The position numbers and the translations under genes were made by a program. Below the pieces are notes generated by a model, which was not told where the DNA came from, made no database searches, and was given only the letters and a program-made list of their open reading frames with translations. Shown piece after piece: positions 13,009 to 38,221 of a DNA stretch of 64,000 bases. Position 1 is the first letter of the stretch. Every line of letters starts with the position of its first letter. This DNA is from an uncultured Candidatus Saccharibacteria bacterium (GTDB lineage Bacteria; Patescibacteriota; Minisyncoccia; Phycocordibacterales; JACOZG01), in assembly GCA_964361825.1 (NCBI GenBank), contig CAYICB010000001.1, positions 30,644-94,643 of the forward strand, written 5' to 3'.

Positions 13009-13803
13009 CTAGAGATCAAGGGTCACACCAACCGGCGCATGATCCGAACCCAGCACTTCACCCAAGATAAACGCTTTTTTCACCTTATTTTTCAGCTTCT
13101 CGCTGACCCAAAATTGATCTATCCGCCAGCCCACATTACGGTCGCGGGCATGCGTTTTCTGGTCCCACCAACTATATTCTACCTTCTCCGGATGGAGCAA
13201 ACGAAATGAATCGGTAAAGCCCGCCGCCACAAATTTGTCGAGCCAAGCGCGCTCTATCGGCATAAAGCCCGAGTTTTTCTCATTCTCCTTCGGTCGCGCC
13301 AAATCAATGGGGAAATGAGCGGTGTTTACATCACCGCCGAAAATAATATTCTTCCCTTTCTTAAGCAAAGATTTATTGTACTCGAGAAATTCATCATAAA
13401 ATTTGAGCTTATAGTTTAGCCGCTCCTCGCCCGAACCGCCATTGGGAAAATAAATGTTTTGGTAAATAAAGTCGCCAAAGTCGAGCTCGATCATCCGACC
13501 CTCGCGGGTGAGAATGCTGGAGTAGCCAGACCGCGGATTATCGCCAAAATCCTTGGTAAACTTCTTCGGTTTTTCTTTAGTATAAACCCCCACGCCGCTA
13601 TAACCCTTCTTCTCTTTCTCCAAGTCCCAATAAGCGATGTAACCATCGGGGTGCGTCAAAGCCGCGCTCAACTTGATTTCATCATCAATCTTCACCTCCT
13701 GCAAACCCACCGCATCAGCTTTACTCTCGGCCAACCACTTGGGAAAACCCTTCTTCTCCGCCGCCCGAATCCCATTCACATTCCACGAGATAAAAGTCTT
13801 CAT
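13009..13803 (-). CDS. xth: exodeoxyribonuclease III (AP endonuclease)
   Basis: MKTFISWNVNGIRAAEKKGF...LQEVK and the C-terminal SDHAP motif. Confidence 0.9.
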   Translation of the reverse strand: MKTFISWNVNGIRAAEKKGFPKWLAESKADAVGLQEVKIDDEIKLSAALTHPDGYIAYWDLEKEKKGYSGVGVYTKEKPKKFTKDFGDNPRSGYSSILTREGRMIELDFGDFIYQNIYFPNGGSGEERLNYKLKFYDEFLEYNKSLLKKGKNIIFGGDVNTAHFPIDLARPKENEKNSGFMPIERAWLDKFVAAGFTDSFRLLHPEKVEYSWWDQKTHARDRNVGWRIDQFWVSEKLKNKVKKAFILGEVLGSDHAPVGVTLDL

Positions 13804-13866
13804 TGGGCCGATTGTAGCATAAGATTTGATCTTGAGTTAAAAACAAAATCATGTTAGTTTGTAAAC

Positions 13867-14106
13867 ATGACCAAAGCTAAAGTCCTCAGTGAAAAAATTA
13901 ATTTAACTGCCCGAGTCTTCAAAGAAGGAAAAATGTATGTGTCTCACAACCCAGAACTAAATGTGGCGAGTTGTGGCAACACCGCCGAAGAAGCAACGCT
14001 TAATCTCCGTGATGCCGTGTCTGGTTTTCTTAAATCGGCTAATAAATTAGGAACTTTAGAAGAAATTCTTGAAGAAAAAGCCTTCACGCGAGTATTTGTT
14101 GTTTGA
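13867..14106 (+). CDS. HicB/UPF0150-family antitoxin-like small protein
   Basis: Motif YVSHNPELNVASCGNTAEEATLNLRDAV matches the UPF0150/HicB N-domain pattern (Y.A.vPdLpgc.tqG.T.EEAl.N..EA). Its 3' end overlaps the RT gene 3' end by 23 bp, convergently. Confidence 0.55.
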   Translation: MTKAKVLSEKINLTARVFKEGKMYVSHNPELNVASCGNTAEEATLNLRDAVSGFLKSANKLGTLEEILEEKAFTRVFVV

Positions 14107-15067
14107 GTTTAAAACTATTCCCCCACCCCAGCAAACCCAAATACGAATTAATCACCGCCGGTTCTGGTTTCTGGGTCAGTCTTTTCAACATTCTCTTCTT
14201 CGTCACTGTTCTTAACACCCGATGATCGGGAAAGTGAATCCAACCGAGAAAATCAACACCAGAGGCAAGAGTCTGAATGGAAATTTTCTTCGGGTGCATG
14301 GAGAGCTTGAGTTTATTCCTCAAGAAATCTTGCATGAGCGGCAAAATCTGTTCTAGATATGCACGATCAGGGGACACAACCACAAAGTCATCGGCATAAC
14401 GGACATAATATTTTATTTTAAGCTTGTGCTTCACGAACTGATCAAACTCGTTCATGTAAATATTTACAAACAGTTGCGAGGTGAGATTGCCGAGTGGAAG
14501 ACCCACACCGTTTCTGCCCGAATTGAAGCTACCGAGAACAACAGAGAGAAGCCAGATAATATCTTGATCCGGAATGTATTTGCTTATAATCACAAGCAAA
14601 GTGGTCTGATCAATGTTTGCAAAAAACTTCTTGATATCGCATTTTAGCGCCCAAGTAGCTCTTGTGTTATTTCGCGAGATGATGTCGGTAAATTGTTGGA
14701 AACGCTTAAGCGCCCGGTGCACCCCCTTGCCGATTTGGCAGGAATGAGAATCTGAAATAAATGTCTTAGTGAAAAACGGAGAAAGCATCCGGTGCAAAGC
14801 ATGGTGAAGCAACCTGTCGCGCACACTTGCCTTGTGAATATCGCGTGGTTTGGGATCGGAAATTTTAAATGCCTGATATTTTGAGTGTGAATATGCCTTA
14901 GCAACAAGCTCGTGATGAAGCGAGACTATGTTTGTCATCAAGTTTCGCTCGAACATCTGCACATCTTGGCGGGCTCGCTTGCCACGCACGAATTCTTTCC
15001 ACGCCTTGAGAAGATTCTCGAGCGAGATGATATCATCATGTGTATGTTGAAAAATAATTTTGGGCAT
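14084..15067 (-). CDS. DGR reverse transcriptase
   Basis: RT motifs present: CDIKKFFANIDQ (motif 3), GLPLGNLTSQLFVNIYMNEFD (motif 4, with the DGR-specific [ILV]GxxxSQ), YVRYADDFVVV (YxDD), and a C-terminal GLLGWGNSFKLKQ. 327 aa. Confidence 0.9.
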   Translation of the reverse strand: MPKIIFQHTHDDIISLENLLKAWKEFVRGKRARQDVQMFERNLMTNIVSLHHELVAKAYSHSKYQAFKISDPKPRDIHKASVRDRLLHHALHRMLSPFFTKTFISDSHSCQIGKGVHRALKRFQQFTDIISRNNTRATWALKCDIKKFFANIDQTTLLVIISKYIPDQDIIWLLSVVLGSFNSGRNGVGLPLGNLTSQLFVNIYMNEFDQFVKHKLKIKYYVRYADDFVVVSPDRAYLEQILPLMQDFLRNKLKLSMHPKKISIQTLASGVDFLGWIHFPDHRVLRTVTKKRMLKRLTQKPEPAVINSYLGLLGWGNSFKLKQQILA

Positions 15068-15074
15068 AAAGATG

Positions 15075-15105
15075 GTCAGTCAGTCAGTCAGTCAGTCAGT
15101 CAGTA
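15075..15105. repeat. tetranucleotide microsatellite (GTCA)x7.5
   Basis: gtcagtcagtcagtcagtcagtcagtcagt(a) lies 8-38 bp upstream of the RT ATG (15065-15067) and 16-46 bp upstream of the avd TTG start (15121). Confidence 0.95.
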
Positions 15106-15120
15106 AAGATTTTACCCGTT

Positions 15121-15474
15121 TTGAGTAAGGTCAAGAGTGGATATCTAACATGGTACAAATTTTATCAAGAGATCCCTAAAACACACCGATACTCACTCGG
15201 CCAGCGCACAGACAACCTGTTTGTCGAAGTGATTGAAGCAATTTCGGCGGCGAGTTTTCTCTCGAGAGAGGAAAAGCAACCATATGTGAGACTTGCAATA
15301 AAGAAACTCGATACTCTACGAGTACTTCTCATGATTCTCTGGGAGACAAGATCTTTTGACGACAAGAAATACATTGCCCTATCGGTCATTCTTGGTGAGG
15401 CCGGGAAAATGCTCGGTGGTTGGAATGGCCAGCTTACAAAACAAAACTCTCCTACAAAAGCAGGAGAGAAATGA
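15121..15474 (+). CDS. avd: Avd-like accessory variability determinant (four-helix-bundle protein)
   Basis: 117 aa. IPKTHRYSLGQRTDNLFVEVIEAI and the C-terminal LGEAGKMLGGWNGQ...KAGEK resemble Bordetella phage BPP-1 Avd (IPRKHGVAREMFLK ... IAEVGRILGSW...GQAGK). TTG start; the frame stays open upstream through the microsatellite to a GTG at 15079. Confidence 0.6.
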   Translation: MSKVKSGYLTWYKFYQEIPKTHRYSLGQRTDNLFVEVIEAISAASFLSREEKQPYVRLAIKKLDTLRVLLMILWETRSFDDKKYIALSVILGEAGKMLGGWNGQLTKQNSPTKAGEK

Positions 15475-15480
15475 AGAGAG

Positions 15481-15607
15481 TTGCGGGACAACAAACGCGA
15501 ACCCGCCGTTGTCGTTCCACTCGTCGTCTGGCCTGTCGTAGTTGGCGTTCAGCCAACCACCATCGTCGTTGCGGTTCGCGTTGAGCAAGTTCGGATCGCC
15601 GTCGGAA
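15481..15607 (-). repeat. DGR template repeat (TR)
   Basis: 127 bp, near-identical to 15980-16112. At every one of the 14 mismatches this copy has T on the + strand (A on the - strand). It encodes an Asn-rich reading (NANRNDDGGWLNANYDRPDDEWNDNGGFAFVV). Confidence 0.85.
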
Positions 15608-15934
15608 ACACACAGGAAACCATCAGTGTCACTGCCCCTCGAATACTCTTAGGGCTGTATCGAATCCGGCATCGTAATGCCTTAGTCTCCCGTGCCAAGT
15701 ATCTTCGTTTTTTAACAGTTACATGCATCACTCTATCTGAAGCCATGACCGCAGATAATCTCGATGCACGGATACTGGGTTCGGTAGCGGGAAGCCGTAA
15801 CCGCCCGCATATTCACCTACTACCATTTAAATTTTAGCATAATAAAACCCCATGCCAGATTGCATGAGGTTGGAGTTTGATACGCTGTGTCTCCCGAGCG
15901 TTTGGCAATTGCTTGCCGTAGGACTAAGGTCCAA

Positions 15935-15961
15935 GGAACCAAGCGCTAGGGCTTAGGTTCC
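15935..15961 (-). promoter_or_regulatory. GC-rich stem-loop immediately 3' of the VR (candidate DGR homing hairpin)
   Basis: GGAACCAAGC-GCTAGG-GCTTAGGTTCC, about 19 nt beyond the VR end on the - strand. Confidence 0.5.
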
Positions 15962-15973
15962 AAGGTATCAGTA

Positions 15974-16693
15974 CTACTTTTGCGGGACAGGGACAACAAA
16001 CGCGAACCCGCCGCTGCCGTTCCACTCGCCGTCCGGCCTGTCGTAGTGGGCGCCCAGCCAACCACCACCGTCGAGGCGGTACGCGTGGAGCAAGCGCGGA
16101 TCGCCGTCGGAATCCTTGATGGGTTCGTGCATCGTGACGATGTACCACAGACCCATCTGTTCCAACTGCTCGTCCGTGAATGTGTCGCGGATCAGGCAGG
16201 CGACCTCCCAATGAGGCTTGACCCAGCCCTTCTTGTCGGCGGCCGCACGAATCTTCTTCGTGATACGGTCACTGATCTTCTGGCCCGGGCGCACCACGAT
16301 GTTGTAGGTGACGCCATTGGTCGGCGCTTCGCTTGCGCGACGCAGCACTTGACGTGCATAGTCGCCGATTCTCCAACCGCGACGCTCGAGGTACTGTTCC
16401 CACTGTTCGCGGGTAAAGCCATTCGAGGTGAGCGTGAAGTGGATGTTGCCCTCATCATCGACGGTCCATGCGGTCGGTGTCGGCGCGGTCGTCGGAATGG
16501 CAGCTCCTTCGCTTTCGGGAACTTCACCGGGTTGTTCATCAACTATGCCCTGCAAAATGTCAACAACCTGTTCTGGGTCTCGTTTTCCATCAAGAACCAG
16601 TTTGCCAACATTTGCCTGAAGCTTCCATAGTCTCTCGTACACGTTGTTGCTCACAACCATCTCCTTTTTGAAGAACTTACACCCGCTACTCAC
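15974..16693 (-). CDS. DGR target (variable) protein with C-terminal C-type-lectin/FGE-like VR
   Basis: 239 aa. The C-terminal 44 codons (LLHAYRLDGGGWLGAHYDRPDGEWNGSGGFAFVVP) are the VR. There is no obvious signal peptide. The gene is markedly more GC-rich than the neighbouring RT and avd genes. Confidence 0.8.
   Translation of the reverse strand: MSSGCKFFKKEMVVSNNVYERLWKLQANVGKLVLDGKRDPEQVVDILQGIVDEQPGEVPESEGAAIPTTAPTPTAWTVDDEGNIHFTLTSNGFTREQWEQYLERRGWRIGDYARQVLRRASEAPTNGVTYNIVVRPGQKISDRITKKIRAAADKKGWVKPHWEVACLIRDTFTDEQLEQMGLWYIVTMHEPIKDSDGDPRLLHAYRLDGGGWLGAHYDRPDGEWNGSGGFAFVVPVPQK
15980..16112 (-). repeat. DGR variable repeat (VR)
   Basis: Matches the TR except for 14 substitutions, all at TR-adenine positions on the - strand. 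A 6-bp GGGACA duplication lies at the 3' (IMH) end. The VR ends 4 nt before the target stop codon. Confidence 0.85.
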
Positions 16694-16855
16694 AGGTGCT
16701 TCCGGAATCTGCCGGATCAGTTAGCAAGGAAATCTCGCTAAATCTGGCCCAAGGTTAGCATATGCCCTGACAAAAGTCAAGCAAAAGTGGGAAATATGGC
16801 TTAAAATAAGGTTATTTTAACCGTAACTTACCTTCTGGTTTCTTGAGGAAATTTC

Positions 16856-16886
16856 AGTTATCGACAAACTGTCGATAACTTGTCGA
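16856..16886. promoter_or_regulatory. palindromic operator-like site GTTATCGACA-AAC-TGTCGATAAC plus an extra TTGTCGAT half-site
   Basis: Perfect 10-bp inverted repeat, about 165 bp upstream of the DGR target start and about 45 bp upstream of a small + ORF (16924-17133). Confidence 0.4.
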
Positions 16887-17212
16887 TGGTTCAAATCACA
16901 ACTCCACTTCTTGCACAAATTTTATGAAATGGCATAATCGTTCTATGTCTAATTCAATAGAAAAGCCAGTCATCTTGGCTCGAAAGGAAATTGAGTCTGT
17001 TCTTCGGCGTTACCAACTCAATTGGGAGGAAGTCCTGCCCGATCAAGATAATTCGATTTGGAAAAAATTCAAACCGGAAGCTAAAAAAGTCCGTCAAGAA
17101 CTGCTCCGCAAATTTTATCCGTCGCTTCAATAAATGCCGCGGTGCTACCGGTAAAAATCGTAACGCCACAAAATTTTTTTCAACAATATTGGATTTGATA
17201 CTGGGTTTTACT

Positions 17213-37472: not shown

Positions 37473-38221
37473 AATTTATTTATCAGCAGATTTTTTATCT
37501 CCCCCTCTACAACCTTTTGGCTTTTTTGGCCGAAATGGTGCCAACCCACAATCTTGGTCTCGCGATTATCATCTTAACTTTATTGGTTAAACTGGTCTTG
37601 TTTCCGTTTTATCATAAGACACGGAAAATTCAGCTTAAAATTAAGGCGATTGAACCAGAATTGAAGAAGATCAAACAAGAAAATGCTGGTAATAAGCAGG
37701 CCGAAGCCTTAAAAACGATGGCTTTGTACCGTGAGCACGGGATTAGCCCATTATCTGGGTTCGGTATTATGCTAATTCAGCTACCGATTTTGTTTGCTTT
37801 ATATGGTGTTTTTCGCGAAAGCTTGGCTTTTGATCCCAACCTCCTCTATTCATTTGTGTCTGCCCCAGAAACAGTTAATCATGTTTTGTTTTTCATTGAT
37901 TTAACTAAAGCCAGCTATATTTTGGCAATTTTGGCGGGAATTACCCAGTTTGTGCAAGTAAAATTAGCTTTGCCCGGTACTCCCCCCGCCGACCGCAACG
38001 GTGATGGCAAAACCACTTTTAGTGAGGATTTGGCCCGAAGCATGAATGTCCAAGCCAAATATTTTTTACCAGTAATGATCACCTTGTTTTCTCTTGGTTT
38101 ACCCGGAGCAATTTCTCTTTACTGGGTGGTTGGCAATTTATTTATGATTGCTCACGAACTCTTGGTGAAACACCGAGCTAAGGTGGCGTTTACTGCTCCC
38201 AACTTAAGCTCCACAGTGTAG
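37469..38221 (+). CDS. yidC: membrane protein insertase YidC (short form)
   Basis: Conserved TM1 with K (LLVKLVLFPF) and a 60KD_IMP core. Confidence 0.85.
   Translation: MKFIYQQIFYLPLYNLLAFLAEMVPTHNLGLAIIILTLLVKLVLFPFYHKTRKIQLKIKAIEPELKKIKQENAGNKQAEALKTMALYREHGISPLSGFGIMLIQLPILFALYGVFRESLAFDPNLLYSFVSAPETVNHVLFFIDLTKASYILAILAGITQFVQVKLALPGTPPADRNGDGKTTFSEDLARSMNVQAKYFLPVMITLFSLGLPGAISLYWVVGNLFMIAHELLVKHRAKVAFTAPNLSSTV

Follow-up and report, generated by a model that had tools for sequence, protein, structure and literature searches.

The reverse transcriptases (RTs) of diversity-generating retroelements (DGRs) are distinguished by an RVT_1 fold, a motif 4 of the form [ILV]GxxxSQ and a catalytic YxDD. 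Here we examine the one complete DGR in a 64,000-nt stretch of DNA from an uncultured Candidatus Saccharibacteria bacterium (GenBank assembly GCA_964361825.1, contig CAYICB010000001.1, positions 30,644 to 94,643 of the forward strand); this whole stretch is referred to as the window, and all coordinates are positions within it. The element consists of a target gene with a variable repeat (VR), a template repeat (TR), an Avd-like open reading frame (ORF) and an RT gene, with the ORF lying antisense between TR and RT. Taking the evidence as a whole, we consider it likely that this is a DGR of the B3 class, described below, in which the TR is carried by a separate RNA whose parts are permuted relative to those of the DGR of Bordetella phage BPP-1.

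Three kinds of described system bear on this locus. Simple-sequence repeats (SSRs) act as contingency loci in promoters, as in the (TA)n tract of the divergent hifA/hifB promoter of Haemophilus influenzae and the poly-G and poly-C promoter tracts of Neisseria. Retrons copy their msd faithfully into multicopy single-stranded DNA (msDNA), and do so without Avd, a VR or adenine mutagenesis. The structured RNA of a retron lies 5' of the template, the ends that flank the template form the a1/a2 helix, and the priming nucleotide is found just 3' of the upstream strand (summarized in PMC8867640).

Among DGRs, that of BPP-1 is the relevant point of comparison for the RNA. The Avd family is typified by a pentameric barrel that binds RT and the DGR RNA, and the BPP-1-type RNA by cis-priming from the 2'-OH of an adenosine. 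Its RT-Avd complex needs 20 nt upstream of the TR and a 140-nt downstream spacer (Sp), in which an Avd-binding stem-loop, a primer strand ending at A56, a stop strand, a short hairpin, a thumb ring and an RT-binding stem-loop follow one another. The stretch Sp47-139 runs from the primer strand through two nucleotides to the stop strand, short hairpin, thumb ring and RT-binding stem-loop; the stop strand pairs with a segment just upstream of the TR and the thumb ring is single-stranded (Handa et al. 2024, bioRxiv 10.1101/2023.10.23.563531). For gene order, the closest match is architecture B3, written TR-(avd)-RT with parentheses marking the reverse strand, to which 90% of the DGRs of the candidate phyla radiation (CPR) belong in a set taken from Paul et al. 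2017 (Wu et al. 2018, NAR 46:11, PMC5758913).

Layout of the locus and identity of the antisense gene

The target gene, VR, TR and RT gene are read on the minus strand and avd is on the plus strand between TR and RT, in agreement with the preliminary description of this DNA. A single RT and a single VR are present in the window. All 14 mismatches between TR and VR fall at adenines of the TR as read on the minus strand, an adenine-specific pattern that implies past DGR activity, and the VR is contained within the last 46 codons of the target ORF, the 3' position usual in DGRs; a Pfam search returned no family for this ORF. The gap between TR and RT measures 417 nt (15068-15484), of which avd occupies 354 nt; the earlier statement that avd fills a 410-bp gap was right as to position and needs correction as to size. 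The avd gene converges on the TR, with 10 nt from its stop codon to the end of the TR/VR homology, and diverges from RT, with 53 nt between the two start codons.

A genome scan with the RT recovered 575 relatives, and layouts were counted in the best 80 of these (55-77% identity), almost all of which come from metagenome-assembled genomes of Patescibacteria/CPR. Of these, 73 have an avd homologue on the opposite strand and immediately before RT, and five of the remaining seven lack upstream DNA. A TR with adenine-biased mismatches, sharing the strand of RT and lying 400-550 nt ahead of it, is found in 68 of the 80, with the VR another ~450 nt farther upstream. The window locus has the order TR, avd and RT, with avd on the opposite strand and no other accessory gene. 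It shares with the B3 DGRs of CPR and DPANN this order and these strands, a single upstream target and a Patescibacteria host, and no architectural difference from them was found in the locus. It is an ordinary CPR (Patescibacteria) DGR with the published B3 layout of target/VR - TR - (avd) - RT. The antisense avd, which had been put forward as a departure from the canonical layout, is what the literature describes as normal for CPR DGRs, and no new explanation is called for. The Hainich groundwater well H43 is the source of contigs in which the RT or the avd flank is identical to that of the window.

The plus-strand ORF is an Avd homologue, as judged from profile matches and predicted fold. 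It matches Pfam bAvd (PF22296) with an E-value of 8e-10 and 39.6 bits (gathering score 40), and NCBIfam DivGenRetAVD (NF033474, DGR-Avd) with an E-value of 1e-15 and 57.9 bits (cut-off 80); the E-values are significant, and both bit scores are below the curated thresholds. All 24 family members that were scanned match bAvd (best E 3e-16), and the avd homologues beside 73 related RTs form one family. A single-sequence AlphaFold2 (AF2) model with a predicted local distance difference test score (pLDDT) of 76 folds as a four-helix bundle (helices 2-17, 20-45, 49-75 and 81-108). The top Foldseek match of this model in the Protein Data Bank (PDB) is BPP-1 Avd (4DWL; template modelling score, TM, of 0.75-0.83 and root-mean-square deviation of ~2 Å), and it also matches Avd in ribonucleoprotein (RNP) structures of DGRs (chains of 8UB7, 8UBB and 8UBE), the top hits spanning TM values of 0.72-0.83. 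Homology to Avd rests on profiles and fold, and not on the sequence resemblance to an IPxxH region of BPP-1 Avd put forward earlier, because a PDB search with a profile of 24 Avd sequences gave 4DWL only at an E-value of 0.64, which is not significant. A hidden Markov model of the family found no second Avd-like ORF in the 64-kb window. Both earlier proposals, that the ORF is Avd-like and that it is the only one of its kind here, are borne out.

Conserved RNA structure around the template repeat

Between the TR and the terminator-like hairpin that follows the target gene, whose T-run, at the 5' edge of the family alignment, is conserved, lie ~215 nt that are non-coding, free of 3-nt periodicity and highly conserved across 69 loci. 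Conservation and covariation of this 5' domain were examined in an alignment of these loci (MAFFT for the pair counts), with slid alignments and 500 shuffles as controls. RNAalifold placed seven helices in the domain, with compensatory changes in 40 of 46 pairs. Pairing was seen in 93.8% of cells, compared with 39-53% in slid controls, and double changes in 774 cells, compared with 121-200; none of the 500 shuffles came as high on either measure. Two of the helices flank the TR. H6, of 12 bp, abuts the 5' edge of the TR and stops 2 nt before the TR/VR homology. H5, of 9 bp, pairs across the whole TR, with a 5' strand ~95 nt upstream of the TR and a 3' strand that begins 8 nt past the end of the homology. 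The pairing of H5 (84.8% of cells versus 73.5% when shuffled) was reached by 0 of 500 shuffles, its double-change cells number 60 versus 16 in shuffled and 6-21 in slid controls, and 7 of its 9 pairs show compensatory changes. The upstream partner strands of H5 and H6 lie 6 nt apart on one contiguous strand.

A covariance model of the 110-nt core of this domain (R1) has one match in the window (15605-15713, 106 bits, E 2e-19) and one in each of 16 held-out loci, always on the RT strand and upstream of the TR, with no further match in the 216 kb searched. A scan of 13800-17000 against Rfam, at E-values up to 1, returned no family for the domain, giving only a chance match to LPR10 inside the RT gene. 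Further long-range pairs, for example a pseudoknot with the invariant CUUGG, were sought in an all-against-all screen of alignment columns, which yielded purine/pyrimidine co-drift and, as the sole convincing addition, an outer extension of H1. Upstream of the domain a promoter scan identified an extended -10 element with TG present, for which the family consensus is TGnTAnAAT and in whose hexamer T, A and T are each at least 90% conserved in the 69 loci; transcription of the TR RNA would start near 15824. No description of a 5' structured domain or of a helix clamping the TR was found in the DGR literature searched, Paul et al. 2017 being outside that search.

Having its own predicted promoter and a complex fold, and only indirect links to RT or Avd, the 5' domain could instead work in regulation, outside the RT RNP, for instance as a riboswitch-like leader or as the 3' untranslated region of the target gene, and control the expression of TR or target. 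We regard this explanation as highly improbable, given that H5 joins the domain to the sequence immediately 3' of the TR, that only 2 nt separate H6 from the TR on its 5' side, and that R1 occurs once per DGR locus, nowhere else in the sequence searched and outside any Rfam family.

On the 3' side of the TR, a terminator scan and folding identified a hairpin (-14.4 kcal/mol, 5 G-C pairs, 4-nt loop) that begins 17 nt past the end of the TR/VR homology. It has the form of an intrinsic terminator, namely a G+C-containing stem-loop with a U-tract, UUUUGUUUUG, directly after it. A hairpin and U-tract follow the TR in 67 of 69 loci, with stems of many different sequences, a count that is weak when taken alone, as the loose hairpin-plus-T-run detector also fires on 62% of shuffled tails; the detector was therefore replaced by an alignment test with a covariance model. 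This model (R2), built on 10 loci, found the hairpin directly 3' of the TR in 45 further loci, with 96.2% of cells paired and compensatory changes in 7 of 9 pairs in an alignment fitted to the model. The loop ranges from 3 to 32 nt and is variable in sequence, and the CUC/GAG at the base of the stem hardly varies. A weak match to R2 at 37844-37893 on the plus strand (22 bits, E 0.31) is probably an unrelated terminator.

This same hairpin, given for CPR DGRs as CUCUCCC...GGGAGAG and situated 13-34 nt after the TR, is listed as a putative Avd-binding stem-loop in Table S3 of Handa et al. 2024 (bioRxiv 10.1101/2023.10.23.563531), where it is flagged as 'gene overlap ... with Avd'. It may instead be a terminator only, shaped by convergent transcription of avd, with the 5' domain alone serving Avd binding and reverse transcription. 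The canonical terminator form just described would fit this explanation, as would a loop of variable length and sequence, which is unlike a specific protein-binding loop. We nevertheless think it unlikely, as BPP-1 and 207 of the 278 Avd-containing DGRs examined have their Avd-binding stem-loop at a position matching that of this hairpin, 13-34 nt after the TR, and the near-invariant stem base goes beyond what a terminator needs. The post-TR hairpin probably doubles as Avd-binding stem-loop and intrinsic terminator.

The overlap of this hairpin with avd was examined through synonymous-site entropy in a codon alignment of 74 avd genes. Codons 1-105 are at background. Entropy falls to 0.0-0.3 bits at codons 106-109, against a background of 0.9-2.0, and to 0.88 at codon 110, against 2.53. 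The avd stop codon differs in position relative to the hairpin between loci, which argues that conservation acts on an RNA or DNA element and not on the tail of the protein. By this measure, the extra nucleotide-level constraint in avd is confined to its last ~12 codons, and the overlap between RNA element and coding sequence is real and extends over only ~38 nt (12 codons and the stop). The preliminary description had expected the RNA to be constrained by a coding sequence on the other strand; this holds for the last dozen codons, where entropy and hairpin coincide, and fails for codons 1-105, so that the mechanistic concern it raised applies only to the end of the gene. As a separate observation, the TR sequence GGUGGUUGG (15536-15544, minus strand) is a perfect 9-nt complement of the antisense avd sequence CCAACCACC (15415-15423, minus strand). 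Both stretches encode Gly-Gly-Trp, which probably makes the match coincidental, and synonymous sites there are near background.

The same data bear on a model along the lines of the preliminary description, in which one minus-strand RNA would run through target, TR, antisense avd and RT, and a ~140-nt spacer antisense in avd would supply the primer and RT-binding elements. With a BPP-1 layout, Sp would cover the final ~45 avd codons in antisense. In favour of this model are the shared strand of TR, RT and target, the little space that a 53-nt avd-RT gap leaves for an RT promoter, and the prediction by Handa et al. of downstream duplex strands in this region. Their 'cPRT Stop' duplex (30-21 nt upstream with 48-57 nt downstream of the TR) is complementary in consensus; we rejected it as the main structure, its 77.6% pairing being matched by shuffles (77.0%) and its upstream strand being part of H8, a hairpin with good support. 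The primer, stop, thumb-ring and RT-binding elements of BPP-1 were not found within ~140 nt 3' of the TR, where entropy beyond the hairpin and U-tract is at background and the duplex is without covariation. The unconstrained synonymous sites of codons 1-105, the hairpin and U-tract that follow the TR in nearly all loci, and the strongly covarying TR-flanking helices, which pair with upstream strands, likewise speak against the single transcript. We consider it improbable, and the idea of a BPP-1-type spacer within avd is for the most part unsupported.

The reading that we prefer is that the TR is transcribed on its own, in an RNA of ~390 nt (~15824 to 15437) that would end at the hairpin and U-tract, with RT and avd transcribed divergently from the ~50-nt region between them. 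Conserved RNA is found upstream of the TR, unlike in BPP-1, and thus only the last dozen avd codons overlap it; the antisense overlap between the TR RNA and avd mRNA would be ~38 nt, not 350. The upstream strand would present, in order, the 5' strand of H5 (primer-like), UACUUG(G), the 5' strand of H6 (stop-like), the short hairpin H7, a single-stranded stretch that is conserved, and the hairpin H8. Elements follow one another in this way in Sp47-139 of BPP-1, the last three corresponding to Sp71-139, and the Avd stem-loop is likewise 3' of the TR; the RNA therefore looks circularly permuted: it would begin before the primer-like strand and end after the Avd stem-loop. Reverse transcription would start at the 3' edge of the TR and stop at H6, keeping the logic of the RT-Avd RNP with the spacer-equivalent placed upstream, and the candidate priming nucleotide, a guess from topology, is the near-invariant A15700 in UACUUGG.

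Compared with BPP-1, this locus has the same RT, Avd, TR/VR and adenine mutagenesis, a stem-loop a few nt 3' of the TR, and a duplex at the 5' edge of the TR together with a strand pairing by its 3' edge, both with one contiguous partner; a stop strand, hairpin, single-stranded stretch and second hairpin are predicted in the same order. The differences are that avd lies upstream and on the same strand in BPP-1 and is here antisense and downstream of the TR, that the primer, stop, thumb-ring and RT-binding elements are 3' of the TR in BPP-1 and their candidates are 5' of it here, and that the RNA here appears to end at the stem-loop. The retron msr-msd offers a second likeness, in its 5' structured RNA, in a helix of the flanking ends (a1/a2, comparable with H5), through which the retron's 5' priming nucleotide is brought beside the 3' end of the template, and in an RNA functionally separate from the RT mRNA. 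It differs in that the msd is copied faithfully and Avd, VR and adenine mutagenesis are absent; branch priming is a retron feature and serves here as an analogy only.

Several points weigh against this reading. Sequence is the source for the predicted start and end of the TR RNA and for both promoters, its own and the separate one of RT, and topology for the primer and stop assignments. Intrinsic terminators leak, which would allow read-through to RT. The RT-proximal promoter is weak or unclear, with TTGACC-14 nt-TAAAAT in the window, and in relatives with a poly-G tract between avd and RT (see below) a TAnnnT directly after the tract is present in only 21 of 56. H5 has a mismatch in the window, with C15707 opposite A15472. 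The Handa-type duplex is 77.6% complementary compared with ~50% in slid controls, and there may be a conserved, non-covarying contact of this kind with antisense avd codons 103-105. Finally, avd usually starts with TTG CCA GTn TTG (M-P-V-L) in this family, and the window reads TTA CCC GTT TTG within 15109-15123, so that its options are TTG 15121 or a non-standard ATT at 15109, the family TTG sitting three codons upstream. Given the absent family start, and as avd was left uncalled by the gene caller on a contig with an identical RT (L081), this copy might be poorly expressed.

If the reading is correct, CPR DGR RNAs are not findable by the BPP-1 recipe of 20-40 nt upstream and 100-140 nt downstream of the TR, as in the B3 class covarying elements extend up to 215 nt on the upstream side, and on the downstream side the RNA goes on for only ~50 nt. 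It also supplies concrete RNA boundaries and two helices, H5 and H6, for reconstituting or engineering a CPR DGR in vitro, and points to a topological evolutionary link between DGR and retron RNAs.

A repeat tract between avd and RT

Most of the 53-nt region between avd and RT is taken up by a (GTCA)7GT repeat. A repeat of at least 8 nt is found at the equivalent position in 70 of 77 relatives, compared with 6.4% of control windows; these tracts comprise 56 poly-G tracts of 8-14 nt, eight tetranucleotide repeats with differing units, four dinucleotide repeats and two heptanucleotide repeats. The type of unit differs even among close relatives and the position is kept, a combination that is the signature of a contingency locus. 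Copy number also differs. A search of metagenome contigs with the flanks recovered a close strain variant, on a Hainich H43 contig (L082:84-113), that has (GTCA)5 as opposed to (GTCA)7 in the window, with the avd-side flank identical over at least 80 nt and several substitutions on the RT side, and two other related loci (L009 and L010) carry 8 versus 6 units. A search by exact RT protein found one contig, with the same 7 GTCA units.

These patterns suggest that the repeat is a phase-variable switch for the expression of RT and/or avd. As in the contingency loci of hifA/hifB and Neisseria, the tract lies between divergent genes, changes unit with position kept and varies in copy number between strains. 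It differs from them in that it is not demonstrably situated between a -35 and a -10 element, and in being known here from its sequence. Two mechanisms were considered and set aside as general explanations. Translational phase variation of avd by frame-switching is not general, as the tract of most relatives is placed 7-9 nt ahead of the TTG that starts avd (and ~13-25 nt ahead of the start of RT). In the window, the avd strand has an ATG at 15072, before the repeat, whose frame differs from that of avd with 7 units and stops at 15126; with 6 or 9 units the two frames would agree. The equivalent ATG of one relative (L006) is in frame through (CAAT)7. In the second mechanism the poly-G tract would separate the two elements of an RT promoter, its -10 element following at once; this arrangement is enriched over controls (21 of 56 versus 4.6%) and far from universal.

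No paper in the DGR literature searched ties DGRs to repeat-mediated phase variation, Paul et al. 2017 again lying outside the search, and as far as was searched both the permuted 5' structured RNA and the near-universal repeat tract are apparently undescribed. A broader statement would be that the RNA of B3 CPR DGRs is a self-contained, terminated and permuted retron-like non-coding RNA of ~390 nt, with primer-like and stop-like strands and RT-binding elements 5' of the TR and only the Avd stem-loop/terminator 3' of it, overlapping the convergent avd tail, and that expression of RT and/or avd, and hence hypermutation, is stochastically switched by the intergenic SSR. This combined proposal is advanced tentatively; it could well hold, and we would stop just short of calling it probable. 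If the repeat tract is a switch, organisms with tiny genomes keep hypermutation under stochastic on/off control.

Coordinates and minor observations

The features described above are collected in Table 1.

Table 1. Features of the DGR locus, in window positions
Feature	Positions	Strand	Basis or remark
RT gene	14084-15067	-	327 aa; RVT_1 E 5e-22; LGNLTSQ and YADD in translation
(GTCA)7GT simple-sequence repeat	15075-15104		Sequence; in the avd-RT intergenic region
avd	15121-15474	+	117 aa from TTG; Pfam/NCBIfam profiles and predicted fold
9-bp hairpin and U-tract UUUUGUUUUG	15447-15468; U-tract 15437-15446	-	Antisense to avd codons 106-116
H5 3' strand UCUUCAUUU	15469-15477	-	Predicted to pair with 15702-15710 across the whole TR; contains the avd stop (15472-15474)
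TR	15485-15607	-	Direct repeat; 123 nt
Structured non-coding 5' domain of the proposed TR RNA	15608-15824	-	Conservation, covariation, covariance model
H6 3' strand	15610-15621	-	Ends 2 nt ahead of TR
H6 5' strand	15684-15695	-	Partner 15610-15621; hairpins H7 and H8 between
Near-invariant UACUUG	15696-15701	-	Between H5 and H6 5' strands
H5 5' strand	15702-15710	-	Partner 15469-15477
Long hairpin H2-H4, then A-run	~15723-15768	-	5' domain
H1 hairpin	15787-15808	-	5' domain
Extended -10 element TGCTAAAAT	15831-15839	-	Promoter scan, TG present; family consensus TGnTAnAAT
Terminator-like hairpin and T-run	15846-15871	-	Terminator scan; 3' of the target gene
Target gene	15974-16693	-	ORF list; 239 aa; VR at C-terminal end
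VR	15990-16112	-	Direct repeat; 123 nt; 89% identical to TR

Two further observations concern the ends of the locus. At the 3' end of the VR (15984-15995, minus strand) the sequence TGTCCC occurs twice in tandem, compared with a single copy in the TR, an in-frame 6-nt duplication that adds Val-Pro exactly at the 3' boundary of the TR/VR homology; the homology picks up again at GCAA after the duplication. Beyond the other end, a 79-aa ORF on the plus strand (13867-14106) is convergent with RT, sharing 23 nt with the 3' end of that gene. This ORF has no Pfam match at E-values up to 0.1 and is annotated as a gene on contig L081 too.

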